From: Bilabrum cf. latius
Taxonomy: Eukaryota
Length of the DNA stretch: 64,000 nucleotides
NCBI GenBank assembly: GCA_965178125.1
Contig: OZ237737.1
Coordinates: 868,001 to 932,000 of the forward strand
Direction of reading: 5' to 3'
Shown here: in pieces, positions 1-64,000 of the stretch
Numbering within the stretch: position 1 is the stretch's first letter
Layout: each line of letters opens with the position of its first letter
Translations under genes and position numbers: made by a program
The notes under the pieces: model-generated
Database searches by the model: none
The model's input: the letters and a program-made list of their open reading frames with translations, nothing else
What the model was told of the DNA's origin: nothing

Positions 1-3000
1 GGTGGCGTGCAGCCAGGCTGCCATGACGAACAACTTCGTGGGCTTCAGCTCAAGCGACTGCGATGCCACCATCACCATGGACTCTGCCACCTCCGGCATG
101 GCTCGCATCACGGTGGATGCTCCTCGCGGCCAGGGCGCATACGATGAGCTGGTGCTGGTGGTGGACCACGGCCTGGGCCACGACTCTGACCCTGTGCGCT
201 TCAAGTACGAGATGCCTATGATCTCGAGCGTGGTGCTGGCCACGGAAGATGCCGGGGATGTGGAGCAGTCCATGTTCGGATCTCTGGGAGCCCGCGATGT
301 GGAGGTGGGCCAGGACAGTCAGGGCAACCCCTTCACGAACGGATACCGCATGCCCACCACTGGCATCGACCTGGATGACCAGCACTACCAGGCTCTGGAC
401 AGGTATGGCGTCAAGGCAGATCTGTGGATCGTGATCCGCGGGTCTGGTCTCGGCCAGTACCACCCCCTGGTGTACCCCGTGGACGAGTCCGCGCGCGTGT
501 ACATCGGGCGCAACGATGCCGCCGGCGAGATAGAGGTGGACAGCATGTACGTGGTGCGCGACATCACGACTGAGGGCGCGGGTGAGTCTCTGATCGCCGT
601 GCCTCTGCCCGAGGGCGGTGGTGCCGACTACTACGTGCGCGTGGTGGTAGCAGGCCAGGAGTCCAACGTCTACACGGGTGCGTTCAGCTATGCCCGGCCC
701 GTGATCCAGTCTGTGGAGGTGATCACGTCTGCCATGAGCGATGGCTCGCTGCCCGCCGTGTCGAGCAACTCCCTGACTGTGTCTGCTCAGACCCTGTCTT
801 TCAGTAGCTCTGGCGGATTCCTGGAGGCGCCCCCCACGGGAGGTGCTGTGGTGCGCATCCGTGGGCGCAACTTCGGCCGCCAGGTGCTTGCCCAGGCTGA
901 CTCGCAGGGCCGCGAGACCGGCAAGGTGCAGTGCGCGTTCCTGAGCCACATCGACCCTCCCCCGAGCTGGGTGCCTACCTCTGGTGCCAGGCCCATCCCC
1001 ACGTGCGATGGTGCCGAGACGTACATGGGCGAGGGCGAGGCCTTCACGAACAGCACTGACCCGTCTAGCCCGAGTCCCCAGTCCGTGACGTGGAGCCACA
1101 CGACCGTGGAGATGACCATCCCCGAGGGCATCGGATACCGTGTGGTGCTGCTGGCCGCTCGTGGTGGCGCACTGGCCTCTCTGGAGCCGCAGGCATCGAC
1201 CTTCACTCCTTCGGGTGTGATCATCCCTGGATGGAACGATCCAGACACGACACCTGCCTTGGTGCCCCGCGCCGTGCCTCTGCGGTTCGCGCCTCCTCAG
1301 CTGAGCGGTCTGACGTACTACGTGCCCGAGGGCGAGGCCACTGGCGAGGACGTGGGCGAGGATGCACTGACTCGCATGAGCGCCGCACATACTCGCGGAT
1401 CGACCGTGGTGCTGGAGGGCCGCAGCTTCGGCCCCGACACCGTACTGGACGAGCTGACCAACTCGGAGACCGAGGACGTGTTCCAGGAGCTGGCCCAGCC
1501 GCGCAGCCTGCCTCTGGGTGCCGCGCACCGTGCGCCCATGGACCATGTGCGTGTGCTTGTCGGTGGTGGCTGCCGCACGGACAGCATGGAGTGGTCTGCG
1601 ACGAGTGTGGACGTGCGCCGCGACGTGGTGGACGGGCTGATCCCTGCCCATTGGGCTGCCGAGGACGAGGTGATCCAGGAGGTGCGCAGCTGCATGCCTC
1701 GTGGCGTGGAGGAGCGCACTGACACGAGCATGCGTGTGGTTGTGCCGCCTGGTGTGGGAGCCAGCAAGCAGGTGTCTGTGGAGGTGGTGCGCGCTGCACC
1801 TCTCCGCCTGAGTCCGTCTCTGGTGGTGCCCATGTCGCAGGCACCCCCCCTGTCGTCGTCCAGCTCTGGCTCATCCATGGTGACGTACGAGTACCGTGAC
1901 CCGGAGCCTACCCGTGTGGATCCTGGCTACATGTACATCACGAACTCTGCCCAGATCGGAGCCGCTGCCGAGCCCGAGGACATCGTGGTGTTCGGACGGT
2001 ATCTGGGCCGCTTCGAGGACGAGCGGTCTGTGCGCAGGCCTGCGAACGATTCGTTCCAAAACGTGCGGTACGTGCAGGACGGTTGGAACCTGGAGCTGGC
2101 CATCAACGTGACCAGCATGTACACTCAGGACGACCTTGAGTTCGACATCGGTGCGCCTGAGGGCGAGGCAGCCGAGGGCAGGCGTCTGCAGGTGACCGAG
2201 AACGCCACGCTGGCGATGCACGTGAACTGCTCCGACGTGGTGGCCCGTGTGGAGAAGGGCCAGGGAGGCCGCGGGCAGCCCGAGGCGTGGGAGGATGCCA
2301 TCCGGTGCCCCACGCTTCGTACCGACCTGCTGACCGCCGGTCCCAAGGCTGTGAGCGTGCGCGTTGGCTCGCTGGAGGGCGAGCTGTCGGCCGAGAGCTC
2401 GAACAAGCTGATCGTGGGCTGCGACTTTGGGTACTTCGGTGGTGTGGGCGAGACGTGCCTGCAGTGCCCTGTGACCCGTCAGGGCGAGATGGTGGGTGCC
2501 ATGTGCGCCGGCTACGACTCTGAGACTGACTCGCACACGTACCCGGTGTCTCGCCGTGGCTGGTACGACCTGAAGACCCCTGATGAGCTGTCCATCTGCC
2601 CCGTGACTGGCGGGCAGCGCGGCGATGAGGTGGCTCGTGGTGTGTGCGTCGTACCTTGCGTGCCCGCCGAGGCTTGCATGGGCGACAACACGTGCGCCGA
2701 GGGCTACGAGTCTAAGGCTCCTTCGTTCAGGTGCGCCGCGTGCGCCGAGGGCTACTACAAGAAGGCCGGCGTGTGCGCCAAGTGCCCCGACAACCCGTGG
2801 GTGGTGATCGTGGCGTTCATCATCGCTGCTGCCTGCGCCGGTGGCATGGGTCTGTGGCTGAACTCGACCAACATCAACATCGCCATCCTGTCGATCGGTG
2901 TGGACTGGTTCCAGGTGGTGTCTCTGTTCGCCAACGCCCGCATCAAGTACCCGCCTGTGCTGGACGACCTGCTGACGTACATGTCTGCGTTCAACCTGAA

Positions 3001-4867
3001 CATCTCCCTTGCCGTGCCCGAGTGCATCAGCCCGAACGTCGGGTGGGAGCAGAAGTTCTACTTCACCATCGCATTCCCGCTGGCCGTTGGCGTCATGCTG
3101 TTCCTTGCTTTCGCCAGCTTCGCGCTGTACAAGTACCTGGTGCTGGGCCGCAGCGACAAGCACTCTACTTTCTCGCATGTGAACAAGCTGATCTCTGGCG
3201 GCATCATCGTGTGCTACTTCCTGTACCTGTTCGTGACTGCCACGCTGATGGAGGCGCTGAACTGCATCAAGGTGGACGACTCGGATCCGAACACGTACAT
3301 GCTGGTGGGTGACCTGGAGCCATGCTACGAGCCCGGGGGGCTGCACATGCGTGTGTTCCCTATCGCCATTGTGTTCATGCTGCTGTACACGTTCGGCTAC
3401 CCCGCCATCCTGGGCTACGTGCTGTGGAGCAACCGGGAGCGCATCATGGAGGACCAGCTGCTGCGCGCCAAGGGCCTGGGGTACGACCGCATCAGCAACC
3501 CCCGCGCGTACGATCTTCGCAGGTCGATCGAGCGGTCGTACTTCGCGTTCCGTCCCGAGTACGCCGCCGGCACGATGGGCTTCAACTCTTGGATCGTGGT
3601 GATCCTGGCCCGCAAGGCACTGATCGCCATCACTTCGCTTGTGTGGGCGAACAACTCGTCGCTGCAGCTGTCCGTGAGTCTGCTTGTGCTGCTGTGCGCG
3701 TACGCCATGCAGGTGTACCACCAGCCGTACATGGCCCCTGCCGACCGCGAGGAGACTCTGCGCCATACCATGATCCTGGCCCTGGAGGACGAGCACAGCA
3801 TCTGGGCCAAGCTGCAGAAGAACGTGAAGGAGGTGGAGAAGCGCCTGCAGAAGACCGGGCAGAAGACCGACTGGTCGCGCCCGAACCAGTCCGTGCGATA
3901 CTCGAACCCCGTGGCCCAGGCCATGGGCTCCGTGGCCGTGGGCATGTTCTCGTGGAACACGCTGGAGTCGGGCCTGCTGTTCTCTGCTCTGCTGATCAAC
4001 CTGTCCGGCATCTGCTTCAACGCGATCCAGACTCAGTGCGAGATCGAGAACAACTGCGACTTCTTCCAGCCTCAGGTGGACACTCTGCTTGGCCTGGTGC
4101 TGACGCTGATCTTCACGTCCATCTTCTACTTCATCTTCGTGCTGGTGACGGAGATCTCATACATGTACCAGGAGGAGATGGTGCGCCGCGGCAAGATGCG
4201 GCCGGACGAGCTTTAGACGCTGCCCGAGCAGATCATGGTGTGCTGCGGCTGCGCCGACGAGAACGCGCAGGCTCTGCTGGTGAAGCAGCGCAACATGAAG
4301 AACTCCAAGAAGGGCTCCTCCAAGCGCAAGCTCGTGGCCGATGCACTCGAGGCGCAGGAGGGCGAGCCCGCGGACGCCGACATGTCCGCCAACCCGATCT
4401 TCAAGCGCCTGGCCGAGAACGCCGAGAAGGACGCCGCCGCCAAGAAGGAGGACGCGGAAGACGGGCCCGTGATCGAGGAGATCCCCGACGCGGATGGGCG
4501 CGGCGTGACCGAGGCGGAGGCCCAGGAGATCCGGGAGCGCGCCCAGGTGGTGCTGCAGATGCGCAACCCGCCGAGCGGCGCATCGTGGGAGCAGATCCGC
4601 AGCAACTACGTGAACCTGTCCAAGCACATCGAGGAGCTGGCCCGTCAGATGCGCCGCGCAGGCGTGCAGGGACGGCGCGGATCGAGCTTGGAGACAGCCG
4701 CGGCAGGTGCTCGCCGCGGCCGCGCCGGAGGCAGGCGCGTCGGTGGCGGTGCTCGCGGTGGGGAGGGACGCAAGGCCTTTGGCCAGATGCAGACCACCTC
4801 CACCAGCGGGGCCACTGCTGACGGCGGCATGGTGAACCCCATGGCTGCCAAGAAGGGGGGCAAGTGA
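1..4867 (+). CDS. Giant IPT/TIG-cadherin 9-TM surface protein, copy 1 (5'-truncated by window edge; one in-frame TAG at 4214-4216)
   Basis: ORFs 2..4216 and 4235..4867 are in the same frame and separated only by TAG, where copy 2 has CAG (22576-22578). Ends TGA 4865-4867. Near-identical to 18363..23229 at a constant offset of 18362. Contains IPT-like GxNFG repeats, a Cys-rich stalk and nine hydrophobic segments. Confidence 0.93.
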
Positions 4868-5455
4868 GTTGAGTGCTTGTCCCGGTGCTGGCTGAGATCG
4901 ATTGGGCGCTTTGCGCTTGATCGTCGCAGCTGGGCATCAAAACCGAGGAGCGGCTAGCGTCATTGACGTTGAGCGGAGGTAGTACGACAGCGCTTGGTGA
5001 ATCAATTGCTTTATTGCTATCGGGCGTGTGTCCGATGCAGTGATCGCGATCGCCTAGAGTTGCCTGGAATCCTTTAGCTCGCGTCGGAGAATGACGCTGG
5101 CCGCCAGATGCATCCATTTTGTGTTCTGTTAGGACAGGTTTGTGGAATGCTTTGAATGTCTTGCTTGCATACTGGTACGATTTTTTGTCTTTCGAACACA
5201 TCGTGGATCGCACAAGCATTAATCCGCTACTGAAAACACTTTATCAGGGAAAAGCATAACGAGGAGCCAGAATAGCTGATTACTAGAATTTTTGTCTGGT
5301 TATATGTGGGTGTTTTGATTCAGTCGAATCCCGAGCCGTGGAGGCGCAGCCGCGGCTGCGAGGCCGGAACATAGTTGGGACAGCAGAGCAAGGCCGGGTC
5401 CGTTAGCACTAGACCGGTCTTTAACAAATACCACAGTACAAGGTATCATACTTTA

Positions 5456-8400
5456 ATGCAAATTCCTGAAACGCACGCAGCCTTCGCTGTCACATTTCTG
5501 CTGGTGGTGCTGTAGTCCAGTGACGTATTCGGTGCACCATCGATGGCATCCGCCGTGCTGAGCGGGAAACAGTCTGGTTCCATGCATGCTGTTGAGACTA
5601 TCATTTTGGGTGGCGGTCCAGCAGGCGTACAGTAGGCATTCTATATGCATGCGTCGTCGCGTTCCTATATGCTACTTGAAAAGCAACAGCACCTTGCATG
5701 GTTTTTCAGCCACTATCCAAAGTTTAGGAAGCTGATTAGCATAAACAAGAGATACACGACACGTGAGGAACCTGAATTTGAGCTTCGCCACGACTGGAAC
5801 TCGCTGCTGCAAGACTTACCAGTTGGCACTAACCGGCATGAGCGTAATCGTTCCGAGCCAGTGCTCAGCCAAACGTTCAGTTTTAGTGACGGTTAGAAGC
5901 GCTTGGAATCTCTTCTTCACGATGGAAGTATGGGCCAGCTAGAGGTTGGATCCGATCACTCAGCAGCCTTCGAAGCAGCAGGAGTCCCACTGCTTTGGAA
6001 TGGATCCTCAATCAATGGCCAAGCTGCGCCTCGTGTACTGATGAGACACATGAGCAAGGAGTTTTACCCTCACGCTGATGATATGGCACGATACATCTAG
6101 CTGTTTGCAGAGCGATACCGTCTGAATGTGGCCTACGGTGCCAGCGTTGAATCAGTCGCGAGCCTCCACGGGCAAGCAGCAACTGCGGCGCGAGACCAAG
6201 CACGCCTCGATTGGATGCCTCGGTTTGAGCTTCTCCTTGAGAACGGCTCGGCGGCATCCTTCCCCAATGACCCCGGTATCACGCCGACCATCCGGAGGTT
6301 CGTCTGTAGGCACCTGGTGGTCGCAACCGGACTGAGCGAAGGCCACCTGAGCCCCGCCCACTCGGGACTGGCCAAGCACGGCACCCGGTACGACGAGCTT
6401 AGCAGCAACCCTGACGAAGAATTCGAAGGGAAGCGCATTCTCATCGTTGGCCGCGGCAACGCAGCCTTCGAGGTGGCCGACAACGCCCTCCGTCGAGCGA
6501 GGCAGGTGCACGTGCTCGGCCGCAAGACAGGAAGGGTCAGGCTCGCGTGGGAAACGCACTACCCGGGGGATGTGAGGATGACTCACGCGGCGCTACTCGA
6601 GACGTACATGCTCAAGAGCCAGGACGGCATGCTGGAGGCCAGCAGCAGCAGCGGTGCAGTGCTGTGCAGGGACGATGCCACTGGGCTGCTCACTTTAGAC
6701 GAGAGGGGCTCGTGCGCCCATCATGACTCGCAGGGAGACCTGAAGCAGTACGACAAGGTTGTTCTGTGCTTGGGCTGGCGATTTCAAGAGGATCCTTTCA
6801 GGCGCGGTGGGATGAGGCTTGGGATGGGAGGGCAGGTCGGCTGGAAGCGGCGGCAGGTACTTGCCCGAGCGATGCGGAACGAGGGGAGGGGACCAGCCCT
6901 GCTTGATTCTGCCGCGAGCGATCCGCTCAACCTGCTGTCCCGGCGCCGTGGGTCTTTGGTAGGGTAGCAGCAATCAAACAGCGAGATGAGCGCAAGAGAC
7001 GGTAGCCATGAGGCTACAACCGGCGCCTCGGGTGTGCATGAGGACGACGATATGCATGGTACGGGCACCGAGCTTGACGATGATGCAAGCACTCACCACG
7101 CAGATGCACGTATTGCGTTCGACGGACGCGGCCTGGTCTGGCGCTCGCCACAGGGACGGCAAAAGTACCCCCCTATCGTGCCTCATGGCAAGTACCCTAC
7201 TATGGACGGTGTGTTCAGGAGCCCGAAATACGCTGGCCTCCGGTATGCTGGCACTCTGATGCACGCGGGAGACTGGAGGGTTGCAAGCGGTGGGTTTGTT
7301 CACGGGTTCAGGTATTTGATTCGGGCTCAGGACCGGGTCATGCAGGAGGAAGCAGAGCACTCGCCGCAGGCGTGGCCTCGCATGCGTCTGCAAGGGTTCG
7401 ACTCCATACTGTATGCAATTAAGCGAAGGCTGCTTGTGGGTTCTGGCCTGTATCAGATGTTTGGTCAGCTGCAAGATGTCGTGCTCCTTGACCTTGACAG
7501 CCAGCTGTGGGGCGGCCCAGCCAATGCATGGGACGGACCGCCCAAGGACGCAGAAGCGATCCTGCAGCTTCTCGCCGAGGGGCGCTATCCTGACAGTGAG
7601 GACGAATCCCTTAGCAGTGTTGGTCAGGTATGTCGCCCTGAGATCGCGAGCCAGCTGTTGCAACACTTGCGCGGCACTCTGAAGCCGTCACCTGCCTCAA
7701 TGGGTGGTTGGACGGACGATGTGGAGGAGGATGGGAAAAGTCGCAAGCCTGAGCCGGACAAGGCCTCTGTCTGGGACCCCAGCCATCACGACACTCCCGA
7801 ATATCTGGCAAGGATGCCAAGCGACTTGTAGCGCGCAGCTGGAGGGTTCTTGTTCGAGGAGGTGCCCGTGCGATAGCTGCACCTGCTCGCCAGGAGGTGG
7901 TCCTTCCAACTGCAGGCGTGCGCGAGAGCAGTCTCGTGCGGCAGTGCGGCGGGAGCTGAGGGCTAGGTGTCCTGCAAGCGGAGCGGCCCTTCTCCAGACG
8001 GGCATTCCGTGTACGCGTCCGTCTCACTCGAATACGGGAGTGGCGCGAAACGGTAGAGCGCAGCAGCCGATTAGTCGGACGTGTTCTCTCTGCACCGGGC
8101 CACATTTAGCCATGATGACGCTACTATGGGCCGTTTCCTGCACCCTGTAGTCCGCGTGTTTGTCTCAGGACACCACACGCACGGTTTCACAGGCGACTAC
8201 CATCGCAGCCCACATGGTGACGTGCTCCGTATGGCTCGAAGGCGCGCTGAAGGAGAGCTGTTTGGCATACGACACGACGACAGAGAGGACACCGCCTGGC
8301 AGCAGGGCGATCGCGATAAGCCAGCTGCGTCTACCAGCTTCCCGCCACCCGTTTCTGATGCTCCCTTGCTTGTGGCAGAGGTGCACGTGTCTGAGGATTT

Positions 8401-10186
8401 CAACGCGGAGTTCGTTCACATGGAGCCCTACGGCATGCAGATCGCGAGAGCGATACATGCAGGCGTGTCAACGCTGGTCAAGTCAGCAGCAGCCGCGAGG
8501 GTCGGAGAGATTGGCGCCGGGCTAGCTGCAGCCAAGATGGTGCAACATGTCCTGAACAATTAGCTGCGAAAGCAATTGCTGCCTCTTTTGGGCGGCGGTG
8601 TGGAGCTGACAGAAGGAGACACAGCCAGCACCGGAGCAGGCGTATTGGAGGGCACTACTAGCGGAAGGACGCCGTTGATGGATGCAGGTCCTCTCGGCAT
8701 TATGTCAGGGCTAGCGGCTGCAAGCGATGCAAGCCTGGTTCTTGCAGGTGCACTGCTTGATGGCTCTTCTCCTAGGCACCTCGAATCGTCAAGGGCAGCT
8801 GCCTACGACGCTTCGAGGTCGGTGGGAGCCGTGCTTCGAAGGTCCATGCAGCGCTTCGAGTGGTCCGTGAGGAGGCATTTACTGCCCGACCTGGCAAGGC
8901 GGCTTCCGGCTCATTTGCTGCCCCCTTCGCTGCCTGGCATCGATGATATCGCGCAGGACCACGCAAGCGGTGACGGGATGCCTGCACATGCAGGGGGGCA
9001 CTCCACGGGTGGTGACCCGCACGAGAACGGCCTGGAGGAAGCGAGAGAGGCGTTGTATGTAGCTGTGCAGCACGAAAAGGCAAAGGAAGAAGAAATTCGC
9101 GGAAGCAGTCCGAGTCGCCGTGGTAGAGGTGAATCGCATGACCACAACCAGTTGCGCTACCCTGATGATGACCGGTACGATGAGTATCCCGCCGACGCCC
9201 CTGCCACACTGGACCGCGAGCTGCATGATGTGGACCGCGTCTGGAGCCGCCCGCCCAACTGGACCCTCTCTGGCAGCCATAGCGACGGTGGTCCTGGCTT
9301 TGGCATGGGACGCGGGCGCACGCGATCGCAGCTTCATCGGCCGGAGCAGGTGCACGTGCCCTCAATGTCGCGGGACTGGCTCGCAGGGGAGTTGGCGGCC
9401 GACTGGCTCAGCTGCGCCCTGAGGCATAGCCTGGCGGCTGTTTTGTGGGCGGAGGTGGGAGTGCATCGCACGAACGTGTCGATCACGCCGGACCTCCGTT
9501 GGGCTGCCACAGGTGACGGCGGCAGCATCTCCCGCCCTGTGCAGGACCTTCTCCAGGGACTGTGGCCCTCAAGTGGGACGCAGCTGCATGTGTGGCTTAA
9601 TGAACCCTTGGACTACTCGTCGTTCAACCAGGGTGCGCGGGGGCTGGCGGCTCTGGAGGAGTCCATCCACTCGATGAGGCTCGGCCCCGCGGGCGAGCAT
9701 GAGGCTTTGGAGCAGCTGCTCGAGCTGATCCGTGCGGCGTCAGGGGTGCCCGTGGTCATAACTTCGCGGCATGCTTTGCATACGTGTCCGTAGTACCCCT
9801 TCAAGCCCCCTTCTGCAACGAGGGATGCGGAGCTTTCAGGCAACGGGCGGCCTGCGGATGTTAGCCGGTTTGCGGTCCGACTTGTTGACTTGTGGCAGCC
9901 TTGGCCTGCCAGTGGCACAGATGGAGCGTGTAGCAACATGGAAAGACGTACTGGGCGTGCGGCCACGGATGAATATATCGTGGAGGATGCGTCTTTGGCC
10001 CCCGCTCACGGCGTTGGACCCGACCACGGAGTACCGGACCATGGGGCTCCGGTGGTGAACCCAGCGGGCGCACACCATGGCGCACACCAAAGCGGCTGCG
10101 CAATTAGCCGAAATTTATTGCATGAGCGGGTATGGACAGGGCCCATTGAAGCAATGCGGCTTTTTCGTCAGCAAATCCGGAGCTGA
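5456..10186 (+). CDS. FOXRED2: FOXRED2-like FAD-dependent oxidoreductase with N-terminal hydrophobic leader and long C-terminal extension (1576 aa if TAG=Gln)
   Basis: One frame from ATG 5456 to TGA 10184-10186 with 12 in-frame TAG and no TAA/TGA. Motifs IILGGGPAG, YPKFRKLISINKRYT, LRHDWNSLL, ILIVGRGNAAFE, WETHYPGDVR, GGFVHGFRY, SGLYQMFG and FLHPV match FOXRED2/ERFAD motifs as I recall them. Confidence 0.88.
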
Positions 10187-10381: not shown

Positions 10382-13300
10382 ATGCTGAGAATGACTGCTG
10401 GACTTGCGCTCGCCGCCACGCTAGTGGCGGCTGCGTTCGCTCAGCTTGTCCCTGACAAGGCTTTAGGAAGCAAAATGGTTGATTTTTGGGACAGTGAGGA
10501 CGTTAACGGCTTTCAACGCTCTGAAAATTGGGTATTTGCTGCGAGAATCGCGAGTTTTTGTTGCATCGGAACTTGAGTCTGCACACAAAGCGTACGCGCC
10601 GATTGCATCTCCACCCGCTTTCGCGACAAATTTCGCAGCGACGAAGTTCTCCAAGACTAGTACCCAGTATCCGTCCACTTGGAAGAGCTGGAGGGGGCGC
10701 ACTATGTCTTAGGTGAGTAAATTGCCCCGAATGAGATGCATCTCAGCGCTCCGCAACATCGCTTACGGCCATGGTGGTGCTTTCCTTGCCATTTGTGTCG
10801 CAGTCGAACTCCCGCAATCGCCCCCGCACCTACACGCGTCGTTTAAACTGCCAACCGTAAGTTATTTGTGCTGGGATAGCCGAAAGTCTTGCGTAATTTT
10901 GCCACAGGGCCTCAAGTGTACCAATGTTCTTGTGGACGTCACGGTCTGTTTTGACTTTTCACCGACGCATGAGACGAATGGTTTTATAATAATTTGAATC
11001 AATTATCAATTTTTATCTCGCTCGCAGGGGCATGTTTTTCGACTGGTCTGGCAACAAGTTCATGACCGCTACGAGCGACAACCAACTTGATCTCTACGGG
11101 TCTGGCACTCAAGTGAGAGTAGTCTCTTGAGCAGCTTAGCTCAATGAAAGCCTATATACATGTATAGCTCACATGGAATGTTTCCTGCCGGCTTACACTC
11201 GCAGGGGCACATCATCTATGTGGTCGGAAGCTCGTGGTACTCCACTACGCGAGGCACCATGCTGCGCAAGGGCCAGCCTGTTGGTGCTCGACGCACCTAC
11301 TGGGAGATGTTCCAGCAGCTCTCGACATCTAGCCAGCGTTTTGGCTTCGTGGCGTCCTCTGCCTACACAACTAATTCGCGTTACACGGGTGCCCAGACCC
11401 TGCCCAACTCCCCAAGCTCGGTACAGTACCATGTGTACATGGGCAGGATTTGGGTGCGCCAGTACACCGGCGGAGTGAGATGAGCTCAAGCACATCCCAG
11501 CGCTTTTTCCATTTTGTTGCTTTTTAACGCACTTGAAACTACTTGATGCCCGTCCGTCCTTCTCGCAGAGGCGGTACACGTACATTTACGCCGAGATCGA
11601 TTTCAGCACGTCCGGCCTCCAGTACGGTGGCGTTGACTACGCCGGAAGCTACTACTACTACATCTACCAGCCGTCAGCATCTACCACAGACCAAGCACGC
11701 ACTATCTCAAGCGGTAGCTCGTACCCTCTGCAGGTGGGCGCGTCCTACCGCGGGTTCGAGGGTCTCATGATGGAGTTCGGGATCATGAACTCGTCGTCCA
11801 GCACTGATGAGAACCGGCTGCGCTCGTACCTCGGCACCAAGTGGGGCACCGGAGGCTGCCCTCCTGCCAACTCGGTCGAGAATGGGCATGGTGTCATCGC
11901 TACTACTAGCTCGGACTACTACTGCCGAGTGCCATTCGAGAACAGGGACTGCTCTCAGGCGTGCGCGTCTGGCAAGGGAAAGCCCGTGGGTGGAGTGGCT
12001 ACCAAGACATGCCAAGACTCCCAGTGGACCTCCCACGACCTGATCTGCGAGAACACTTGCGAGATGACCGAGGGTCCCGCCTTCACTGCCGGCTGCTACC
12101 GCACCGTGGTGTCGGCCGACTTCAACGGCAATGACGTGCTAAATGGCCCAATGCGCACCTTCCGCCTGTTCCCTCGGACCAGTTCTGCCCTGACTGCCGC
12201 ATACATGTCTGCCTCTTCCGACGGCCGACTGAAGATGGACCCTAGGCAGTGCACTTACACCACCGTCTACTACGCCGAGGACAACCCAGCGTGGCTTGAC
12301 ACCGGCGACAGCCAGCAGACTGTGACCGTGGAGGCCACCATGCAGCTCGAATACGGCTACGGTGGCCTTGCATTCAAGATGACCGATGAGCGCACCATGA
12401 TGCGCGTGCAGTATACCTACTACGGGTCCACCTGGTGGTACCTTTACCTGATCATGCAGGTCGGTGGCAGGTACACGTATCTCGGCAGCATCTACTACTA
12501 CACTCGTGATAAGCCCCCGATCTACGTGCCCCAGCGCATTGCCGATGCTCGCTTCAATGGCTACCGCAACATCACATTCGAGCAGTTCTTCGACGACGCC
12601 AAGGAGCAGGCTCGCCTCGCTGGTCACGGCAACCGCCACGCTGAGTTCATCATCCGTGCCCGCGTGAAGGCCCAGAACGTCAAGGTGTGGCTGCTGCCCC
12701 TTGATGCCACCCACGGCATGGCCAAGGAGGGCGCCACCTCGGACACCCACGAGGTGCGCAACGACATCGACAGGTACTACGGATATGATGGGCAGTTCTC
12801 GCCGCTGTGGGGACCTCAGAATGGGCTTAGGAACAAGGATGGTGACGATACACCCGACAAGATCTTTACGGCCAACGAGGAAGAGACCCTGGACGACACG
12901 AAGCCTTTGTGGGAGTTCAACCGCAACGACATCCAGGCTGGTACTGCCGGCATGTACGTGTACGGCACTGCCTACTTCGACAACTATCGCGTCTCGACGT
13001 CATGCGGTGCCGGCAAGTCATGCCTGAATGTGCGAGGGTACAAGGGCAACGGGTGCACGTGGGGCTGCGCCGAGGGCTTCCTGCCCAAGAACGTGTCCGA
13101 GCAGAGCGCCATGTGCAACCATGAGGGCAACGGAGAGGTGGCCTGGTCGAGCCAGGGCGTTAACTGCAAGCTGATCCCGCCCACCTTTGACTCCAACCAC
13201 CCGCCGCTTGAGGTCCGCGAGGACGCCACCGCAGACACCCCGATCGGGCTGCCCATCGCTGATTCCGTGACTACCAATGCATCCGATGCTATCACGCTCA

Positions 13301-40137: not shown

Positions 40138-40196
40138 TAAATTTGTGAGAAACGTCATCAGTACCCGATGGATTATATGGTAAATTAAGTACACAA

Positions 40197-53600: not shown

Positions 53601-56600
53601 CCACACGGGTAGGCTCCGGGTCACGGTACTCGTACGTCACCATGGATGAGCCAGAGCTGGACGACGACAGGGGAGGTGCCTGCGACATGGGCACCACCAG
53701 AGACGGACTCAGGCGGAGAGGTGCAGCGCGCACCACCTCCACAGACACCTGCTTGCTGGCTCCCACACCAGGCGGCACAACCACACGCATGCTCGTATCA
53801 GTGCGCTCCTCCACGCCACGAGGCATACAGCTGCGCACCTCCTGGATCACCTCGTCCTCGGCAGCCCAGTGGGCGGGGATCAGCCCGTCCACCACGTCGC
53901 GGCGCACGTCCACACTCGTCGCAGACCACTCCATGCTGTCCGTGCGGCAGCCACCGCCGACAAGCACACGCACATGGTCCATGGGCGCACGGTGCGCGGC
54001 ACCCAGAGGCAGGCTGCGGGGCTGGGCCAGCTCCTGGAACACGTCCTCGGTCTCCGAGTTGGTCAGCTCGTCCAGCACGGTGTCGGGGCCGAAGCTGCGG
54101 CCCTCCAGTACCACGGTCGATCCGCGAGTATGTGCGGCGCTCATGCGAGTCAGTGCATCCTCGCCCACGTCCTCGCCAGTGGCCTCGCCCTAGGGCACGT
54201 AGTACGTCAGCCCGCTCAGCTGAGGAGGCGCGAACCGCAGAGGCACGGCGCGGGGCACCAGGGCAGGGGTCGTGTCTGGGTCGTTCCAGCCGGGGATGAT
54301 CACACCCGAAGGAGTGAAGGTCGATGCCTGCGGCTCCAGGGAGGCCAGTGCGCCACCACGAGCGGCCAGCAGCACCACACGGTATCCGATGCCCTCGGGG
54401 ATGGTCATCTCCACGGTCGTGTGGCTCCACGTCACGGACTGGGGACTCGGGCTAGACGGGTCAGTGCTGTTCGTGAAGGCCTCGCCCTCGCCCATGTACG
54501 TCTCGGCACCATCGCACGTGGGGATGGGCCTGGCACCAGAGGTAGGCACCCAGCTTGGGGGAGGGTCGATGTGGCTCAGGAACGCGCACTGCACCTTGCC
54601 GGTCTCGCGGCCCTGCGAGTCGGCCTGGGCAAGCACCTGGCGGCCGAAGTTGCGCCCACGGATGCGCACCACAGCACCTCCCGTGGGGGGCGCCTCCAGG
54701 AATCCGCCAGAGCTACTGAAAGACAGGGTCTGAGCAGACACGGTCAGGGAGTTGCTCGACACGGCGGGCAGCGAGCCATCGCTCATGGCAGACGTGATCA
54801 CCTCCACAGACTGGATCACGGGCCGGGCATAGCTGAACGCACCCGTGTAGACGTTGGACTCCTGGCCTGCCACCACCACGCGCACGTAGTAGTCGGCACC
54901 ACCGCCCTCGGGCAGAGGCACGGCGATCAGAGACTCACCTGCGCCCTCAGTCGTGATGTCGCGCACCACGTACATGCTGTCCACCTCCATCTCGCCGGCG
55001 GCATCGTTGCGCCCGATGTACACGCGCGCTGACTCGTCCACGGGGTACACCAGGGGGTGGTACTGGCCGAGACCAGACCCGCGGATCACGACCCACAGAT
55101 CTGCCTTGACGCCATACCTGTCCAGAGCCTGGTAGTGCTGGTCATCCAGGTCGATGCCAGTGGTGGGCATGCGGTATCCGTTCGTGAAGGGATTGCCCTG
55201 GCTGTCCTGGCCCACCTCCACATCGCGGGCTCCCAGAGATCCGAACATGGACTGCTCCACATCCGCGTCATCTTCCGTGGCCAGCACCACGCTCGAGATC
55301 ATAGGCATCTCGTACTTGAAGCGCACAGGGTCAGAGTCGTGGCCCAGGCCGTGGTCCACCACCAGCACCAGCTCATCGTATGCGCCCTGGCCGCGAGGAG
55401 CATCCACCGTGATGCGAGCCATGCCGGATGTGGCAGAGTCCATGGTGATGGTGGCATCGCAGTCGCTTGAGCTGAAGCCCACGAAGTTGTTCGTCATGGC
55501 AGCCTGGCTGCACGCCACCAGCGAGTACGAATCGCCGAATGTCACGGTGGCCTTCATGCCGAAGTTGTGGCCCTGAAGCACGATGGCTCCACCGGTCGAC
55601 GGGAACGTGGCCGCGTTGGCAGCCGATGTACCGGCGAAGGCAGTACCATCCACCTCGATGGCGGTCACCACGGGCTCGGCGTAGTCGATGGTCACGGCGG
55701 GAGACAGCTGGGTGCCGGCATACACGCGCACGGACACATCGCGGCCCTGCCCTGCAGGCACACGTACCCAGAAGAAGCACAGGTCCTCCAGCTGAGGTGC
55801 CGCTGAGGTAGTTGCCTGGTAGTACGCCTCGCAGGCAGCGCGCACGAAGGTGGCAGCACCGCTGCCCTCGGCCACGAAGCGAGACTGAGACTCGGCGCCA
55901 GGAGTCGTGTCGGGCTCGTACGTCACACCAGTGATGGAACCAGTGTAGATCGCCGGCTCGGGAGCAGTGATGGAGCTAGTACTGAGCTGGCGGCGGTTCA
56001 GCAGACGGCCATTGCACATCCGCTGGTCGTTGTAGTTGACCTCGTCACAGTCGTTGCCAAACAGAGCAAGCACGCCCTTCTCGTCCTGCGATGTGAGCGA
56101 CCGGAACGGCAAGGCGAGGCCCAGCACGTGCCCCTCGCCCGTCGTGGGGTACCCGCCCGGGGGCTGGCCCACAAGGTCCGAGATGATGGGAGCCTCCTGA
56201 GAGACCACCACGTCCTTGGTCGTGTACGTGTGCTCGGTGGCGGGCACGGTGCCCTTCACCTCGTCCAGCTTGTTCGTCGTCTCCACCACAGCGCGCACCG
56301 TGAAGGTACCGGCGCGCACCCACAGCCTGATCATGTCATCGCGCCACGCGATCAGCTGGAACTCCCGCTGATCAGCGGGCAGCTGCGTCTGCTGCACGTG
56401 CGAGACCCAGCCAGAAGCGCTCACGTTGCCACCGGCAGTGTCCTCGGCGAAGTTGCCCTTGTAGAACATCAGCGTGCGGCCCTCGGCCACAGGGTTCCCG
56501 CCAGGCACAGGCTCCATGTGATCCGGCCCGGGCTCCAGCGTGATCAGCCGGTACGGGGTCTCCGTGGCACCAGCGTCCTTGTCGGGAAGCAGCTCGAACC

Positions 56601-59600
56601 AGTCCGACAGCCTCTGGCCGCGTAGCGTGACCTCCCAGATGTTGCGAGTGAAAGTGTTCGCTTGGGATGGCTGTCCACCGAAGGCACGGGTGGCCTGCAG
56701 CTTGAGCTCATCGTCGCCAGACACAGCCACGGTGGTCATCTCGGGGAAGTCCAGCTCCGGCTCATTGTAGTGGAACTGCTTCAGGCTTTCCCAGTCAGAC
56801 CGAGACTCCACCTCGGCGTTTGTTGCCACCATGCCGGTCGCAGCGTCCATGCCCACGAGGCCCAGGCCAAGCACGTGGCCCCGGCCGAACCCAGGAGGCA
56901 CCACCACACGCACAGCGCCCACGTCCAGGGGCAGGCCCTGGCCCGACTGGTACCCAGCCACCTTCCCACCCACATCGTACTGCTGCCACAGGTTGTTCAC
57001 AGTACTGCGGTCCAGGGTGTCCACGAACACGCAAGCGGCGGAATCGTTCACCAGCTGCTCGGCATGGATGGGCACCAGCGAGCCCAGGTAGCTCCGCACG
57101 GCCTGCTCGTACTGCTCGCGGTCCTGAGTCTTGCCCTCGTCGTCATCGGGGATGGAGTCATCATCCAGAGAGGCGGGGCGAGGGGGGAAGCTGGGGTCCC
57201 ACAGGCCAACCACGGCGGAAGTGGGGTCGCTGGCCGGCGGCAAATGCCTGGCGAACATCACCAGAGTCTCCGAGTTCCAAGGCATGGGCTTGGGGTTGCC
57301 CACATTCGGGGTCACGTACAGCGGCGTGGGCAGGCTGAAGTCGAACGTACCGCGGGGGTCGTTGCCGCCGTCACCGCTCGCCTCGCTCACCTGGTCGGCC
57401 ACAGACACGCGGATCTGGAAATCACGCCCGATGCCGGGGCCCAGCTGCACCATGATCTGCTCGTGGGAGATCACCGTGTAGTTCAGCGCGCTGTTCCACT
57501 CGCCAGTCGCGGTCTTGCCGTACTCCACCCACTGCACCATCGCACCGGACGACTGCTCGGGGTCGTACATCTCACGGGTGGGGGGGCCCAAGTTCTGACC
57601 AGTCACCAGCACCCAGGTGCCGCCAGCCGAATCAGCGTCCTCCACACGACGGCCCATGGGTGTGCCGGGCATCATGATCTCGTTCACGGTCGGGGCCTTG
57701 TACGATGCCTGGGGCACCCGAGACCGCTCACCATTCACCACCACGATCCACTCAAGGGCGCGACCAGCGCCAGGCAGGGTCATGCACTCCAGCTGGTAGT
57801 GCGCCTGTGTCATCACGCAGTCGCGACGGGGGTCCAGCACCACCAGGCCAGAGCCATCACCCAGAGCGGGCGCAGGGGCCATGGTCAGGCCCTGGGCCAG
57901 CGACACATTCACGCGACCCTCGTAGGTTGAGTTCATGCCTCCCGGGTCTGCCACCTGCGCGATGTAGTTCACCGTGTCAGGTACCACGGGACCGAAGTTG
58001 CGGCCATCGATCACCACCTTCTGGCTACCCGTGGTGTTGGCGCGCACAGCACCCTCGCCGGTCAGCCCAGTCACAGTGGGGAAACCGTACCGGGTGAAGC
58101 CACGGCTCCACAGAGCCACCTGGCCACCCACCTCCACGGTCCATGCATGCGGGCCGTTTGCGTCCATCCACTCAGGCAGAGCTGCCATCTGGCAGTCGAT
58201 GATGTCATCGCTGCGCACCACACAGGTGGACGCCTCGATGGACTCAGTACCGGCAGTCGCCTTCAGCTGGTCGCCGGGGTAGTTGGGCCAGCGGTACACA
58301 GGGTCAGGGCCGTAGTACGCCGTCACGGGCAGGTCGGAGCTGGGGTTGCCGAAGTACCGGCCACGGATGCGCACCACATCGCCACCGGCAGTGTTGCCCT
58401 GCTGAGGCGGGTTGATGAGCTGGTACACCTGGGGCGGCCTGTACGACAGCGACCTGGTCCGGTACACGATGTTGGTCGACGGCAGCGTGCTCTCCTCGTG
58501 GCTGCACTGCTCGTCTTGCAGGATGTCAGGCGCAAGCACCACGTTCGTGTTGTCGGTGATCCTCACGCTGAGGCCGTGCCGGGCGCCAGCACCGCGCGTG
58601 TATCCCTCGCACGTGATCTGGGTGGACGCCTGGGTCAGCTCGCAGCTCAGCAGCTCAAACTGCCTGGAGCAGTCGGGGCCGAAGTACACAAGCGGCCTGG
58701 TCTCAGCTCCAAGCACCTCCATGGGACCGAAGTTCTCGCCGGTGATGATGAACCGGTTCCAGATGCGCCTTGAATCAGCGTAGCTGGTGGCATCAGCATG
58801 TGCCTGCTCATGAGTGTCGCCACGGGCGATCTCCTGGTCGTACCTGGTCTGGTACTCGGCCTCCCACGACCACCCCTCCGGCTCCATGTTGTGGTTGTAC
58901 GTGTACGAGCTCGTGATGCCAGAGCGCAGGCTGATCACGCGAGGAGGAGCGTACGTCACGGTCTGTAGCTCGGGGGCCTAAGCAAACTGCCCACCCACAG
59001 ACACTCGGATCTGAAGGTCAGCACCGATGCCCTCAGGGGCACCCACAAGCAGAGAGCCATGGTCGGCGCTCTCGATCGACGTTGACACGAACCGGTACTC
59101 GCTAGAGGTAGGGGTCACCCGGCCCACGTACACCATCACAGCCTGCGGGTCGCTGCCCAGGTCAGTGCCAGTGATTACGAACTTGCTGTTCAGCTCATGC
59201 GAAGACCCGGAGCCCACGCCCTTGGTATTCAGCCCACCTGCATTGATGGCCACCTGGTCCATGGTCACGGCCGTGATGTTGGGAGCCTGATAGCCAAACT
59301 CCATCCGCCCGATGGCAAAGCTGCGGATCTCCTCGCCATTCACCATCGCGTACACCACCCAGTTGCACAGACCAGTGCCCTCGGGTGCTGCGCAGTTCAG
59401 GGTGTTGTCGTCGGGGGCAGTGCAGCTGGTGGTCTCGTACCTGCGTCCGATCGCGTTCGTGCCCACCACACGGAAGCTAGTGGCCCGCGAGAAGCGAGAT
59501 CCGGCGAAACGCAGGGTCTCGCCACCAGACGTGGTCAAGGCGGTGCCAGTCGGCATAGTCACGGACTCCACCAGCGGCCTGTCAGTGCCGCCGCTCTCGT

Positions 59601-60558
59601 CGGACACCAGGATGATGCGCACGTCGCCGATCGTCGTGGCCCCGTAGTTGTCAGTGGCGTTCACCTTCACGGTGTACACCAGGCGCACGAACTGTCCATC
59701 GTAGATCTGGTCCGTCCAGCTGATATCGGCGGTCGCGTTGGGCGCCTCAGTCCAGTAGAAGCGACCAGCGGTGGCGTTGCCAGGCTCTCCACCCTCGATG
59801 CCCACGTAGTTCTTGCGGGTGATGTCGGAGCCAGGCCCGGGAAGGTCGCGATGTACCACTCCGGTGGAGCTCTGCAGCAGCTGCACGAACACAGTCGAGT
59901 TCACGTCCTCGTCCTCCACAGCGATCGTGTCGGTGCCGACCCAGGCCATGTCGGCCAGCTGCGAGAAGCGAGCCGTGATCTCCTGGATGTCCTCGGGGAA
60001 CATCGGGGCGTCGTTGCGGTCTTCCAGGCGGATCGTCACAGCCATCTGGGAGAAGATAGCGGCATTCACCTTCGAAGTGGCCCGCACTTGCAGCTTGTAC
60101 TCGCTGAAGCGCTCGAAGCTCAGCCCGCCGGCAGGACCCACGTGCAGTGTGCCGTCATCCGGGTCGATCGTGAACAGTGGCTCTCCATCCGGGCCACCCA
60201 CCTCAGCGTCCTGGTCCATCGAGAAGATCGAGTACTCCGTGTCCTCGTCCTTGCCCTCAGGGTCGATAGCCGTCAGCTTCGCGTCGGGGAAGGCAGACCC
60301 AGGGGCAGCGTTCTCGGGCACAGTCCGGATCGCCTGGGTGAAGTTCATCTGCTCAATGAACAGCGGGGGCTCGTCCACATCGATCAGGTACACCGGAATG
60401 CGGAACTCGGCTCCCTGCTCGGGCTGCTGCAGGGGGGTGGCACGCACCGTGATGAACTTGACAGGGTCCGTCTCGTAGTCGAGGGTGCGTCCACGAGCTA
60501 GGTACACCTGACCGCTGCAGCCGCTGATGTAAAACAGCGTGTTGCCATTGTCATCCTA
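50653..60558 (-). repeat. Inverted repeat of 13324..23229 (about 9.9 kb, no net indel)
   Basis: Homologous coordinates sum to 73882 at both ends (23229+50653, 13375+60507, 13326+60556). Confidence 0.95.
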
Positions 60559-63460
60559 GTAGCCATCGGTTAAGTTATAAATAAGCGTGATGGCATCGGA
60601 TGCGTTGGTAGACACGGAATCAGCGATGGGCAGCCCGATCGGGGTGTCTGCGGTGGCGTCCTCGCGGACCTCAAGCGGCGGGTGGTTGGAGTCAAAGGTG
60701 GGCGGGATCAGCTTGCATTGCACGCCCTGGCTCGACCAGGCTACCTCTCCGTTGCCTTCATGGTTGCACATGGCAGACTGCTCGGACACGTTCTTGGGCA
60801 GGAAGCCCTCGGCGCAGCCCCACGTGCACCCGTTGCCCTTGTACCCTCGCACGTTCAGGCATGACCTGCCAGCACCGCATGAGGTCGAGACGCGATAGTT
60901 GTCGAAGTAGGCAGTGCCGTACACGTACATGCCGGCAGTGCCAGCCTGAATGTCGTTGCGGTTGAACTCCCACAAAGGCTTCGTGTCGTCTAGAGTCTCT
61001 TCCTGGTTCGCCGTGAAGATGTTGTCGGGTGCATCATCACCATCCTTGTTGCGGTAGCCATTCTGGGGTCCCCACAGCGGCGAGAACTGCCCATCATATC
61101 CGTAGTACCTTTCGATGTCGTTGCGCACCTCGTGGGTGTCCGAGGTGGCGCCCTCCTTGGCCATGCCGTGGGTGGCATCCAGGGGCAGCAGCCACACGCG
61201 CACATTTTGGGCCTTCACGCGGGCACGGATGATGAACTCGGGGTACCTCTGGTCGTGACCAGCAAGGCGAGCCTACTCCTTGGCATCGTCGAAGAATTGG
61301 GTGAGGGTGATGTTGCGGAAGCCGTTGAAGCGAGCATCGGCAATGCGCTGGGGGACGTAGATGGGCGGTAGGTTGTTGCTGAACGAGTTGATGTTGCCGA
61401 GGTAGTTCCACCGGCCGTTCACCTGCATGATCAGGTATAGGTACCACCAGGTGGACCCGTAGTTCGTGTAATCGACACGGAAGTTGGTGCGGTCGTCAGT
61501 CATCTTGAAGGTCAGGCCACCTCGGCCCCACTCGAGCTGCATGGTGGCCTCCACGGTCACCACCTGCTAGCTGTCGCCGATGTCTAGCCACGCGGGATTG
61601 TCCTCGGCGTAGAACACAGTCGCCCAAGTGCAGGCACGAGGATCCACCTTGAGGCGGCCGTCGGTCGTGGTCGACATGTAGACGCTAGTAAGGGCAGGGT
61701 TCTGCCTCGGCCAGAAGCGGAAGGTGCGCAGCGGACCCGAGAGGGTGCTTGCCGTGTCGCCATTGAAGTCGGCCGACACCACGGTGCGGTAGCAGCCGGC
61801 AGTGAAGGCGGGACCCTCGGTCATCTCGCACGTCTTCTCGCAGATCAGGTCGTGGGCAGACCACACGGCATTCTAGCAAGTCTTGGTGGCCACGCCGCCC
61901 ACAGGCTTGCCCTGTCCTGACGCGCAGGATTGTGTGCAGTCCCTGTTCTCGAATGGCACTCGGCACCAGTAGTCCGTGCTCGTGGTTGCGACAACCCCAT
62001 GACCGTTTGTGACAGCGTCAGCTGGAGGGCAGCCTCCGGTGCCCCACTTATTGCCGAGGTAAGAGCGCAGTCGGTTCTCATCGTTGAAGTTTGACGAGTT
62101 CATGATCCCAAACTCCATGATCAATCCTTCGAAAGCATTGAAGCTCGCTCCGACCTGGAGTGGGTAGGAGCTGCCACTTGATAGCACGTTGGCTTTGTTT
62201 GCAGCAGAAGTGCCGGTGGGTTGGTCGATGTAGTAATACCAGCTCAACGCATTGTCGACGCTGCCGTACTGGAGGCCGGACGTGCTGAAATCGATCTCAG
62301 CGTAGATCCACACGCGACGCAACTGCGATATATCTTGTTGAGAGGATTAATACTTCAGAGTATTACTTGCAGCAGTGACTAGCGCATGCAACTGGGAGCG
62401 GCTACTCACTCCAGACGAGTAGTCGGTAACCCTTGTGTACCCGATGTACGTCTTGTACAGAGCCGACGACGGGCTGTTTGGCAAGGACATGCCGCCGGTG
62501 TAGCGGAAATTGGTTGTCTTCGAAGTCGACGCGACGAACGCGAATCGGCTGTTCGAGGAGGTGATGGACTGCATCATCTCCCAGTACGTGCGACGCTGCC
62601 CAGAGGCGAATGGTTCACCCTTCCGGAGCATGGTGCCCCGGTTCACACTGTACCAAGAGCTGCCGACGATGTAGATCATGTGCCCCTGCGATTAAATAGG
62701 TGACAAAAAAGGAGTTGAATCCCGTGTATCGCGCTAGTGCCGTCGCAGGCCACTTTCGCGACGTGTCGCAGCGAGGCGATGGTCGTCTTAAACTCACCCC
62801 CGTGCCCATGTTCGCGAAATCGAGCTGGGCATCACTGGGTGCGGTCATGAAGTCACGTCCAGACCAGTCGAAGAACATACCGCTGCGTGGGGGAATCGAT
62901 ACTGGAAGGGAACAAAAATACCGCGCTGCGGCGACTTATAAGCTCATTCTGACTACTCCTTGGGTGGTGCTCTCACGGTTGGCACATCAGCCTCCTAGTC
63001 ATAGTGTAGGGCTGGTTGGTTCTACTAGTCTGTGATTTGTCGTGATAAGGGATACGTTAAGGCAGGGAGGATGCACATACTTACCGGATACCACGGACAC
63101 TCGTTCGCGATCACAATTTGAGGCTACGCCGAAGCTCACCTACGTCAAAGTGCGACCCCTCCAGCTCTTCCAGGTCGATGGGTACGTCGTAGCCGTCTTA
63201 CTGAAGCTAGTAGCTGCGTATTCAAGGGCGGGAAGTTACCACAGGCATCAAATTATGCAGAAGCACAGAATGGCGCGTGCCACATGTCACAGCGCTTTGT
63301 GAGTCCTTCGGCAGCCTTCAGCGGCAGTCTCGATGAACCAGTGTTTGCAGTGGTACTCACTGTCCCAAAAATCGATCAGCTTGGAGCCAAGGGTCTGGTC
63401 TGGAACCATTTGAGCTGCAGCGCATGCTGCCACGATGCACGAGACAGCCACTGACAGCAT
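50653..63460 (-). CDS. Giant LamG/Sushi/cadherin/IPT-TIG 9-TM surface protein, copy 3, complete, inverted (6 exons, 4085 aa)
   Basis: Exons 63460-63361, 63213-63140, 63029-62977, 62882-62798, 62685-62410 and 62322-50653 join in frame (12258 nt). Signal peptide MLSVAVSCIVAACAAAQ. Eight in-frame TAG (63140, 61873, 61567, 61273, 60556, 58978, 54190, 51304); ends TGA 50655-50653. Confidence 0.92.
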
Positions 63461-63926
63461 TGCGTTGAATGTTGACCCACTCGGAAAAGCAGAGTCAATG
63501 CAATGGGGTTTGATACAGTCAACAAGTCAAACTTGCAAAATATGCACCAAATTCCAGACCTTGTGCGGATTTCTCCACAGTAAAAGTGCCAAACATCCGG
63601 ACAGCGATCATCCAAAACATTTTAACTCGTCGCGACGTGCACAATTCGGAGTCTTAAAATGCGCTAGTGGGGCTAGTGGTCGCAACTTTCTCAAGAATGT
63701 TTGGATTAAATGCATGGTATAAGCATTCAAAACATGAAAAATATATAGGCCAATACGATAAATGTGTAGTCGATTGCGCATTATGCGGCCATTCTCAAAA
63801 AAATCGCAATTTGGAGTACATCATGATCCTTCTCAAGTCTTGTTAGTGAGGCATGTACAATGTGTAATCTCACAGCTAGAGTACCGGCTGTTTGGCCCTC
63901 CAAAACAATATGACCATTACCTCCGC

Positions 63927-64000
63927 TTACACGCTCTCAAGTTTGACCTGCTGCTACTAGCGGATCTCGTCAAGCCGCCGCCCGCTGCCAGTCGCTAGCG
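63927..64000 (-). CDS. Possible 3' end of a further minus-strand gene truncated by the window edge
   Basis: Minus strand reads CTT GAC GAG ATC CGC TAG TAG CAG CAG GTC AAA CTT GAG AGC GTG TAA (LDEIRQQQQVKLESV-stop), where GC-rich sequence gives way to AT-richer intergenic DNA. Only 74 nt are visible and the frame is not established. Confidence 0.3.

Follow-up and report, generated by a model that had tools for sequence, protein, structure and literature searches.

The 64,000-nucleotide stretch of contig OZ237737.1 analyzed here (positions 868,001 to 932,000, filed under Bilabrum cf. latius; below, the window) carries long protein-coding genes that the standard genetic code breaks into pieces lying in the same frame. 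This raises the question of whether UAG is read as an amino acid at this locus, which amino acid that would be, and whether UAA shares the same meaning. An earlier reading made from the letters alone (the sequence-only reading) had proposed that UAG, and UAG alone, has become a sense codon, most likely for glutamine. We conclude, with a probability of about 0.93, that UAG is an ordinary glutamine codon here, that UAA is not a sense codon, and that UGA ends every gene seen. UAG stands in frame in conserved genes, behaves like CAG and CAA, and is used in the same way in environmental relatives.

In the analysis, frames were defined from stop to stop with TAG read as sense and were compared with the frames of the standard code. 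Eight long frames appear in the window once TAG is read as sense. Over their 19,828 codons, the in-frame stop triplets are 101 TAG, 0 TAA, and 0 internal TGA, and TGA is the last codon of all eight frames while occurring nowhere else in frame. In coordinate order, the frames contain 1, 14, 1, 7, 41, 12, 18, and 7 TAG. When the frames were cut back to plausible starts, 93 TAG remained, and one more in the RNA-supported exon 1 of the largest gene brings the number to 94, against about 95 in the sequence-only reading. That gene provides the clearest case. Its frame at 26875-40137 on the forward strand has 4,420 codons with 41 TAG, of which the standard code leaves longest pieces of 578 and 559 amino acids. 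A 13.2-kb exon with about 41 TAG, no TAA or TGA, and no frameshift had been described there, and the recount gave the same picture, with 41 TAG, 0 TAA or TGA, and no frameshift found. The two other frames of the same open reading frames (ORFs) contain 983 TGA, 241 TAG, and 98 TAA. Since random decay would yield mainly TGA together with frameshifts, and since the stops in frame are exclusively TAG while those off frame are mostly TGA, the in-frame TAG pattern is real and reflects neither decay nor chance. Overall, TAG makes up about 12% of the Gln codons across the window genes, and the GC content of the window is 55-66% per 4-kb window.

Searches against Pfam further showed that the pyridine-nucleotide oxidoreductase fold, WD40, and FG-GAP span TAG codons. 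TAG stands at residue 134 within a Pyr_redox_3 stretch (123-179), at residue 3545 within the WD40 propeller matches (3464-3586), and at residue 543 within an FG-GAP stretch (518-550). The claim that domains run through TAG therefore stands for these three families. It does not stand for FN3, whose best stretch (604-731) has no TAG inside, or for cadherin, since no cadherin family was found in the giant paralogue at E<=0.01, where only TIG and DUF7630 were detected.

We then asked whether the TAG codons are present in independent data and in mRNA. A 10-kb stretch is present, at least in part, in thirteen public runs, none of them listed outright as RNA; five of these runs, which come from two studies, contain it completely. 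Contigs of four runs (X1, X5, X6, and X7) from three studies were compared with positions 26875-46874, while runs X8-X13, whose word shares were small, were left out. One contig of run X1, the probable source of the window, spans 26875-46874 with 0 differences, and the contigs of runs X6 and X7, which cover this stretch partially, also have 0 differences. The concern that the data might not support the T at these sites is thus answered by the contigs of all four runs, which show 0 differences wherever they cover the stretch. The contig of run X5, which comes from another study and carries another organism label than X1, equals 26880-40150 with 0 differences. It has 223 extra letters that do not match the DNA immediately upstream of 26880. 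The last 30 of these letters have an exact and single occurrence in the window, at 26747-26776, and the skipped DNA after 26776 opens with GTGAGT and closes with CAG at 26879, as a canonical 103-nucleotide intron. Since the X5 contig lacks a canonical GT..AG intron, it represents spliced mRNA.

The large gene is accordingly composed of exon 1 at 26554..26776 (+), whose extent is the reach of the RNA contig, with the first in-frame ATG at 26586 and one TAG at 26715-26717; the 103-nucleotide GT..AG intron at 26777..26879 (+), absent from the X5 contig; and exon 2 at 26880..40137 (+), 13.26 kb long, which encodes the FN3/WD40 giant protein P0004 and ends with a TGA stop at 40135-40137. The frame is open across the junction into exon 1, and 41 of the 41 TAG of the 13.26-kb exon are unchanged in the spliced contig. 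Because the spliced contig keeps all 41 TAG, editing, splicing-out, and sequencing or base-call error are ruled out for the large gene. UAG is retained in the mature mRNA of this gene, on the basis of one junction in one gene, and the question of the sequence-only reading of whether mRNA keeps UAG is answered to that extent. Of the introns of about 90-260 nucleotides that it had supposed, one, of 103 nucleotides, is now shown by the RNA contig.

As a separate observation, sequence identical to the window occurs in runs under three organism labels from three studies of 2025. The three labels stand either for one organism named differently or for a protist carried in cultures or samples labelled otherwise.

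To find relatives, metagenome contigs were scanned with the large protein. Three loci (L001, L002, and L003) encode relatives at 66-75% identity. The main ORF of L001 has 3,100 codons with 38 TAG and runs off the contig, and an upstream ORF of L001 has 844 codons with 7 TAG and ends with TGA. The ORF of L002 has 1,093 codons with 12 TAG and runs off the contig, and that of L003 has 697 codons with 8 TAG and ends with TGA. Each of the four ORFs contains 0 internal TAA or TGA. At 60% identity, the 844-codon ORF of L001 is orthologous to the window beta-helix gene and has the same upstream position; gene order is thus conserved. The donor site of exon 1, and its position, is conserved in L001 as well. 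The TAG positions mostly differ between the window gene and its 66-75% identical orthologues. In the relatives, 57 of the 251 Gln codons are TAG.

The codons facing TAG in these relatives were then counted. Both sides were X-masked, and a site was taken as informative if it had TAG in one sequence and a canonical codon in the other. P0004 has 59 informative sites against L001, of which 31 have Gln, and 18 against L002, of which 14 have Gln; the beta-helix pair adds 8 sites with 1 Gln. Taken together, a Gln codon stands opposite TAG at 46 of the 85 informative sites. L003 was kept outside this sum, as it overlaps L002; on its own it gave 12 of 15. In the same alignments, a canonical Gln has Gln as its partner in 57% of cases, while any other residue has a Gln partner in 4.2% or less. 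The log-likelihood over the 85 sites was best for Gln, followed by Lys (-116.8), His (-141.6), and Glu (-147.7). As a leave-one-out control, each standard codon was treated as unknown, with ATG and TGG outside because they are untestable in that way, and 58 of the 59 standard codons were recovered. The sole miss, TAC assigned to Phe, arose because dropping TAC removes nearly all of the Tyr calibration. The per-site margin was 1.37 for TAG, compared with 1.53 for CAA and 1.65 for CAG.

Public protein collections contain the genes of these relatives as fragments cut at TAG by standard-code gene calling (P0141, P0147; L001 1-2535). Two separate proteins of 347 and 151 amino acids match the one 844-codon ORF, the 151-amino-acid one corresponding to residues 750-898 of the window beta-helix protein. 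Cluster members in ENA and Logan suggest further environmental occurrences of the lineage.

The window itself holds three copies of a giant membrane protein (paralogues A, B, and C), which were also compared. In the A-B alignment, copy B has TAG at seven sites, and one of these is TAG in both copies. Opposite the other six TAG of B, copy A has three CAG, one CAA, one GAG, and one GAT. Copy C carries TAG where A has one of these CAG, and it carries GAG where A has GAG. A likelihood calculated from local A-B substitution tables placed Gln ahead of Lys (-4.9) and Glu (-8.4), and the number of TAG codons paired with AAG in the paralogues was 0. Codon differences among the paralogues are synonymous versus non-synonymous in numbers of 259 versus 154, 52 versus 7, and 58 versus 12. 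The assignment to glutamine in the sequence-only reading is thus upheld by the relatives, with Gln at 46 of 85 sites and ahead of Lys by 116.8, and the paralogues agree; its broader claim of a sense codon is supported by the spliced mRNA contig, by the relatives, and by the paralogue pairing. Conserved columns that favor another amino acid had been named as evidence against glutamine, and over 85 sites the relatives favor Gln.

More distant homologues gave less discrimination. The large protein P0004 (4,420 amino acids, FN3/WD40) has full-length orthologues in Cafeteria roenbergensis as the top 2 of 3 matches (872 and 841 bits), filed in that species as an uninterrupted protein of 4,331 amino acids. 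P0004 and the Cafeteria protein are identical at 1,301 of 3,831 aligned residues (about 34%). Since an alignment with TAG already written as Q is biased towards Gln, a version with X at every TAG was used, and the likelihood was calibrated on the canonical codons of the window in the same alignment. The Cafeteria residues at the 34 aligned TAG sites are seven A, five each of E, Q, and R, three K, two each of S and W, and one each of D, G, V, P, and L. The likelihood over all 34 sites was 0 for Lys, -0.72 for Gln, -1.48 for Glu, -5.4 for Ser, -17.5 for Leu, -30 for Tyr, and -31 for Trp. At the 22 better-aligned sites, Gln was ahead of Lys by 3.1 and of Glu by 3.3. Given the distance to Cafeteria, this comparison excludes Leu, Ser, Tyr, and Trp and does not separate Gln, Lys, and Glu.

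The flavoprotein P0001 has 9 homologues, among which Cafeteria roenbergensis is the only named organism. The FG-GAP protein matches mainly bacterial repeat proteins. For its internal repeats, a first anchor motif caught 1 repeat, and a looser motif placed the TAG codons in variable loops. Statistics on Gln, Glu, or Leu neighbors of TAG gave no discrimination.

We next analyzed the meaning of the other two stop codons. If UAA had the same meaning as UAG, a ratio of TAA to TAG equal to that of CAA to CAG would give 21.9 in-frame TAA in the window and 45.4 in the more AT-rich relatives. The number observed was 0 in both cases (P = 3e-10 and P = 2e-20, respectively). UAA is therefore not a sense codon and does not encode Gln, and the reassignment of UAG alone, as proposed earlier, agrees with these counts. 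The visible ORF ends, 8 in the window frames and 2 in the relatives, are TGA in 10 of 10 cases. In the large gene, about 15 residues separate the final block of conservation with Cafeteria from the TGA, and the mRNA contig stops 13 nucleotides after this TGA. UGA thus terminates translation. Immediately after the TGA of the large gene stands a TAA, forming one TGA-TAA tandem. UAA may still serve as a terminator.

The same results bear on other explanations of the in-frame TAG. It could be argued that these codons are never translated, either because the genes are pseudogenes or carry assembly or base-call errors, or because U-to-C editing or splicing removes the codons. Apart from the prior expectation that in-frame stops usually mean broken genes, nothing speaks for this, and we regard it as close to excluded: the stop spectrum is TAG only, with no frameshift in the 13.3-kb exon; the contigs of four runs from three studies have 0 differences, and the spliced contig keeps its 41 TAG; in orthologues of 66-75% identity from other samples the frames are long and open, and most of their TAG positions are different; and the paralogues have more synonymous than non-synonymous differences (259/154, 52/7, and 58/12). 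Another explanation is that both UAA and UAG encode Gln, as in the ciliate and Hexamita type of code (NCBI table 6), and that TAA is rare through GC richness. Such a UAR=Gln code is the most common nuclear variant according to the part of PMC11687900 available to us, and a TAA terminator is seen at none of the 10 gene ends. However, the counts of 0 TAA against 21.9 expected in the window and against 45.4 in the relatives, together with the TAA placed directly after the TGA stop of the large gene, leave it hardly any probability.

UAG could also stand for a different amino acid, for instance Lys, Glu, or Leu, in line with other lineages that reassigned UAG only, and a few observations favor this. 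Lys exceeds Gln by 0.72 log units against Cafeteria over 34 sites, two of the paralogue pairs are GAG and GAT, two TAG lie in hydrophobic N-termini, and one flavoprotein column is mostly Met, Leu, or Val. Nevertheless, at the 85 sites of the close relatives Gln is ahead of Lys by 116.8 and of Glu by 147.7, Leu is at -17.5 against Cafeteria, and no TAG/AAG pair is found in the paralogues, so that another amino acid is extremely improbable. Finally, UAG could be context dependent, with Gln as its meaning inside genes and termination near the 3' ends of mRNAs. Context-dependent stop/sense codons have been described for some ciliates, and with ten gene ends only, 0 of 10 TAG is weak evidence if TAG stops are uncommon. 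In contrast, 10 of the 10 visible ORF ends are TGA, and TAG is found close to 3' ends, at codon 4,308 of 4,420 in the large gene and at codon 1182 of 1193 in an ORF encoding a transmembrane segment and a tail. This explanation is therefore unlikely, though it deserves more weight than those above.

Several observations count against UAG being an ordinary glutamine codon. The beta-helix pair has just 1 Gln at 8 sites, though Gln still ranked first there. Lys was marginally above Gln (-0.72) over all 34 Cafeteria sites. The TAG columns of the flavoprotein are variable among homologues, one being the mostly Met/Leu/Val column, and Gln is unusual in hydrophobic stretches such as those at P0001 residue 94 and P0002 residue 27. 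A profile test of the FG-GAP protein, covering 13 of its 18 sites, was powerless, with Gln first and His, Ser, Glu, and Asn within 0.5. The record of run X5 reads only 'RNA? (probably DNA)', and the RNA nature of its contig rests on a single splice junction. A TAA terminator was seen at 0 of 10 visible gene ends. ARAGORN found no tRNA gene in the window or in L001-L003, the window does not encode eRF1, and the decoding tRNA and the altered eRF1 are predictions. The taxonomic placement is drawn from two proteins.

If UAG encodes glutamine, its decoding can be predicted from other UAG=Gln lineages. According to the part of PMC5304391 available to us, UAG without UAA is readable only by the anticodon CUA, a single mutation separates tRNA-Gln(CUA) from tRNA-Gln(CUG), and eRF1 of Iotanema has a change in the GTS motif. 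By analogy with these lineages (PMC5304391, in the same part), a tRNA-Gln with anticodon CUA would read UAG and not UAA, and recognition of UAG by eRF1 would be lost or weakened. With TGA as the dominant terminator of a GC-rich genome, UAG stops may have been so few that the codon could be captured.

The nuclear DNA of the window belongs to a GC-rich protist. Among named organisms, its closest relative is the bicosoecid stramenopile Cafeteria roenbergensis, which is a distant one. With moderate confidence, two fast-evolving proteins place the organism in the Cafeteria neighborhood. The stramenopile idea of the sequence-only reading fits this placement, as the best named homologue of both proteins is from Cafeteria roenbergensis. 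A search of the window at the Rfam gathering threshold detected no family, whether rRNA, tRNA, or another, and the window has no conserved marker gene. In the available part of PMC6972860, the Cafeteria roenbergensis genome is described as having about 70% GC and 1.67-1.89 introns per gene, and a non-standard code is reported only for the mitochondrion (UGA=Trp). The window resembles that genome in its GC richness and in its few introns per gene. It differs in its code, since the Cafeteria roenbergensis orthologue of the large gene is one uninterrupted protein of 4,331 amino acids. We infer that the code change arose after the split from Cafeteria, because this orthologue is uninterrupted and the paper gives a non-standard code only for the mitochondrion.

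The variant code was already known; the lineage using it is new. UAG=Gln with UAA as stop is the same mapping as NCBI table 15. In the parts of PMC5304391 and PMC11687900 available to us, this code is listed for the fornicate Iotanema spirale, the ciliate Protocruzia tuzeti, and some phyllopharyngean ciliates. As in these organisms, UAG alone becomes glutamine here, UAA is not sense, and UGA terminates, and a tRNA-Gln(CUA) with an altered eRF1 would be expected. These organisms are metamonads or ciliates, whereas the closest named relative here belongs to the stramenopiles (Cafeteria); set beside them, the present genome is GC-rich (55-66% per 4-kb window) and has spliceosomal introns. The UAR=Gln code is listed in the consulted part of PMC11687900 for many ciliates, Hexamita, Streblomastix, ulvophytes, and Amoeboaphelidium. 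It is similar in that a stop becomes glutamine and UGA is the terminator actually seen, but UAA is not sense here (0 versus 22 and 45 expected). The same part of that source lists other UAG-only changes in an uncultured rhizarian (Leu) and in Scotinosphaera (Ser), and the ciliate PL0344 with UAG=Glu and UAA=Lys. In these nuclear genomes, as here, the meanings of UAG and UAA are decoupled; what differs is the amino acid, as our comparisons reject Leu, Ser, and Glu.

The literature searched, with partial coverage, contained no report of a changed nuclear code among the stramenopiles, so that an earlier report is possible. An independent origin of UAG=Gln is plausible, though not proven, because the Cafeteria orthologue is uninterrupted and no stramenopile case was found in the literature. 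We lean slightly towards the view that this is the first stramenopile nuclear codon reassignment, in which UAG=Gln without UAA originated independently in a GC-rich, Cafeteria-related clade including at least two environmental relatives, and UAG was captured while TGA was the near-only terminator. If this is true, the codon-capture route and the way in which UAG and UAA become decoupled could be tested on a natural case. Nuclear code changes are rare, and those that separate UAG from UAA are rarer; the available part of PMC11687900 lists only a handful of such lineages. A stramenopile case would add an independent origin in a supergroup with none found in the literature searched, and the combination of a GC-rich genome with TGA at every gene end seen bears on whether a rare stop is lost before its capture. 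Since standard-code gene callers cut these genes into pieces, annotation and phylogenomics of the lineage need the right code. Specialists in protist genomics and in the evolution of genetic codes should find the case of high interest.

The other genes of the window are arranged on both strands. Paralogue C of the giant TIG/DUF7630 membrane protein lies at 2..4867 (+), with its 5' end cut by the window, one TAG (frame codon 1405), and a TGA end. It is followed by the flavoprotein-like ORF (Pyr_redox_3/Pyr_redox_2; P0001) at 5234..10186 (+), which contains 14 TAG from stop to stop, or 12 from the likely start Met at 5456, and ends with TGA. Paralogue A at 11479..23229 (+) has one TAG, in common with paralogue B, and a TGA end. 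The right-handed beta-helix protein ORF (P0002) at 23700..26408 (+) has 7 TAG and a TGA end. On the reverse strand, downstream of the FN3/WD40 gene, lie an ORF at 40197..43778 (-), whose product has a transmembrane segment and a long, disordered tail, and which contains 12 TAG from stop to stop, or 6 when counted from the transmembrane Met, and ends with TGA; the FG-GAP repeat ectodomain ORF at 43126..49815 (-), with 18 TAG and a TGA at 43126-43128; and paralogue B at 50653..62346 (-), inverted relative to A, with 7 TAG and a TGA end.

The two TAG in hydrophobic, signal-peptide-like N-termini are at 5513-5515 (P0001 residue 94, in the context FLLVVL-TAG-SSDVFG) and at 23778-23780 (P0002 residue 27, LMLYVL-TAG-VVVSL). 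The start or exon structure at these two places may differ from the simple ORF reading.

The transmembrane/tail ORF at 40197-43778(-) may be the 3' part of the FG-GAP gene. The FG-GAP frame ends with TGA at 43126, and the transmembrane/tail frame overlaps it, shifted by one base (42900-43330(-)). A type I membrane protein would require an intron at 42900-43330(-) that joins the FG-GAP and tail ORFs. Many GT..AG pairs fit such a join, yet an X5 contig spans 40201-45532 unspliced, and the two ORFs may be one gene or two. The large gene and the tail ORF are convergent, with stops 59 nucleotides apart (40135-40137 and 40197-40199). The X5 contigs stop at 40150 and resume at 40201, and the 50 nucleotides between are covered by the DNA run only. 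This hints that the 3' untranslated regions of the convergent genes around 40137-40201 are very short; the contigs cannot fix the transcript ends.

The share of TAG among Gln codons varies between the genes. It is 0.6-4% in the three paralogues, in which the GC content at third codon positions (GC3) is about 0.83-0.85, and 12-24% in the other five ORFs, with a GC3 of 0.50-0.70. The correlation of TAG share with GC3 gave a Spearman rho of -0.67 (p = 0.07), in which the paralogues are not independent points.

The three copies of the TIG/DUF7630 membrane protein, a protein of about 3,900 amino acids, comprise two direct copies and one inverted copy, with a nucleotide identity of 95.5-98.8%. Paralogues A and B are 75% identical in the first 400 alignment columns and 96-100% identical in each later 400-column bin, and the sequence right after the stop is nearly alike in paralogues A and C. 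The low N-terminal and high later identity of A and B, together with the similar sequence after the stop, suggests a recent segmental duplication or a gene conversion that spared the N-terminus.

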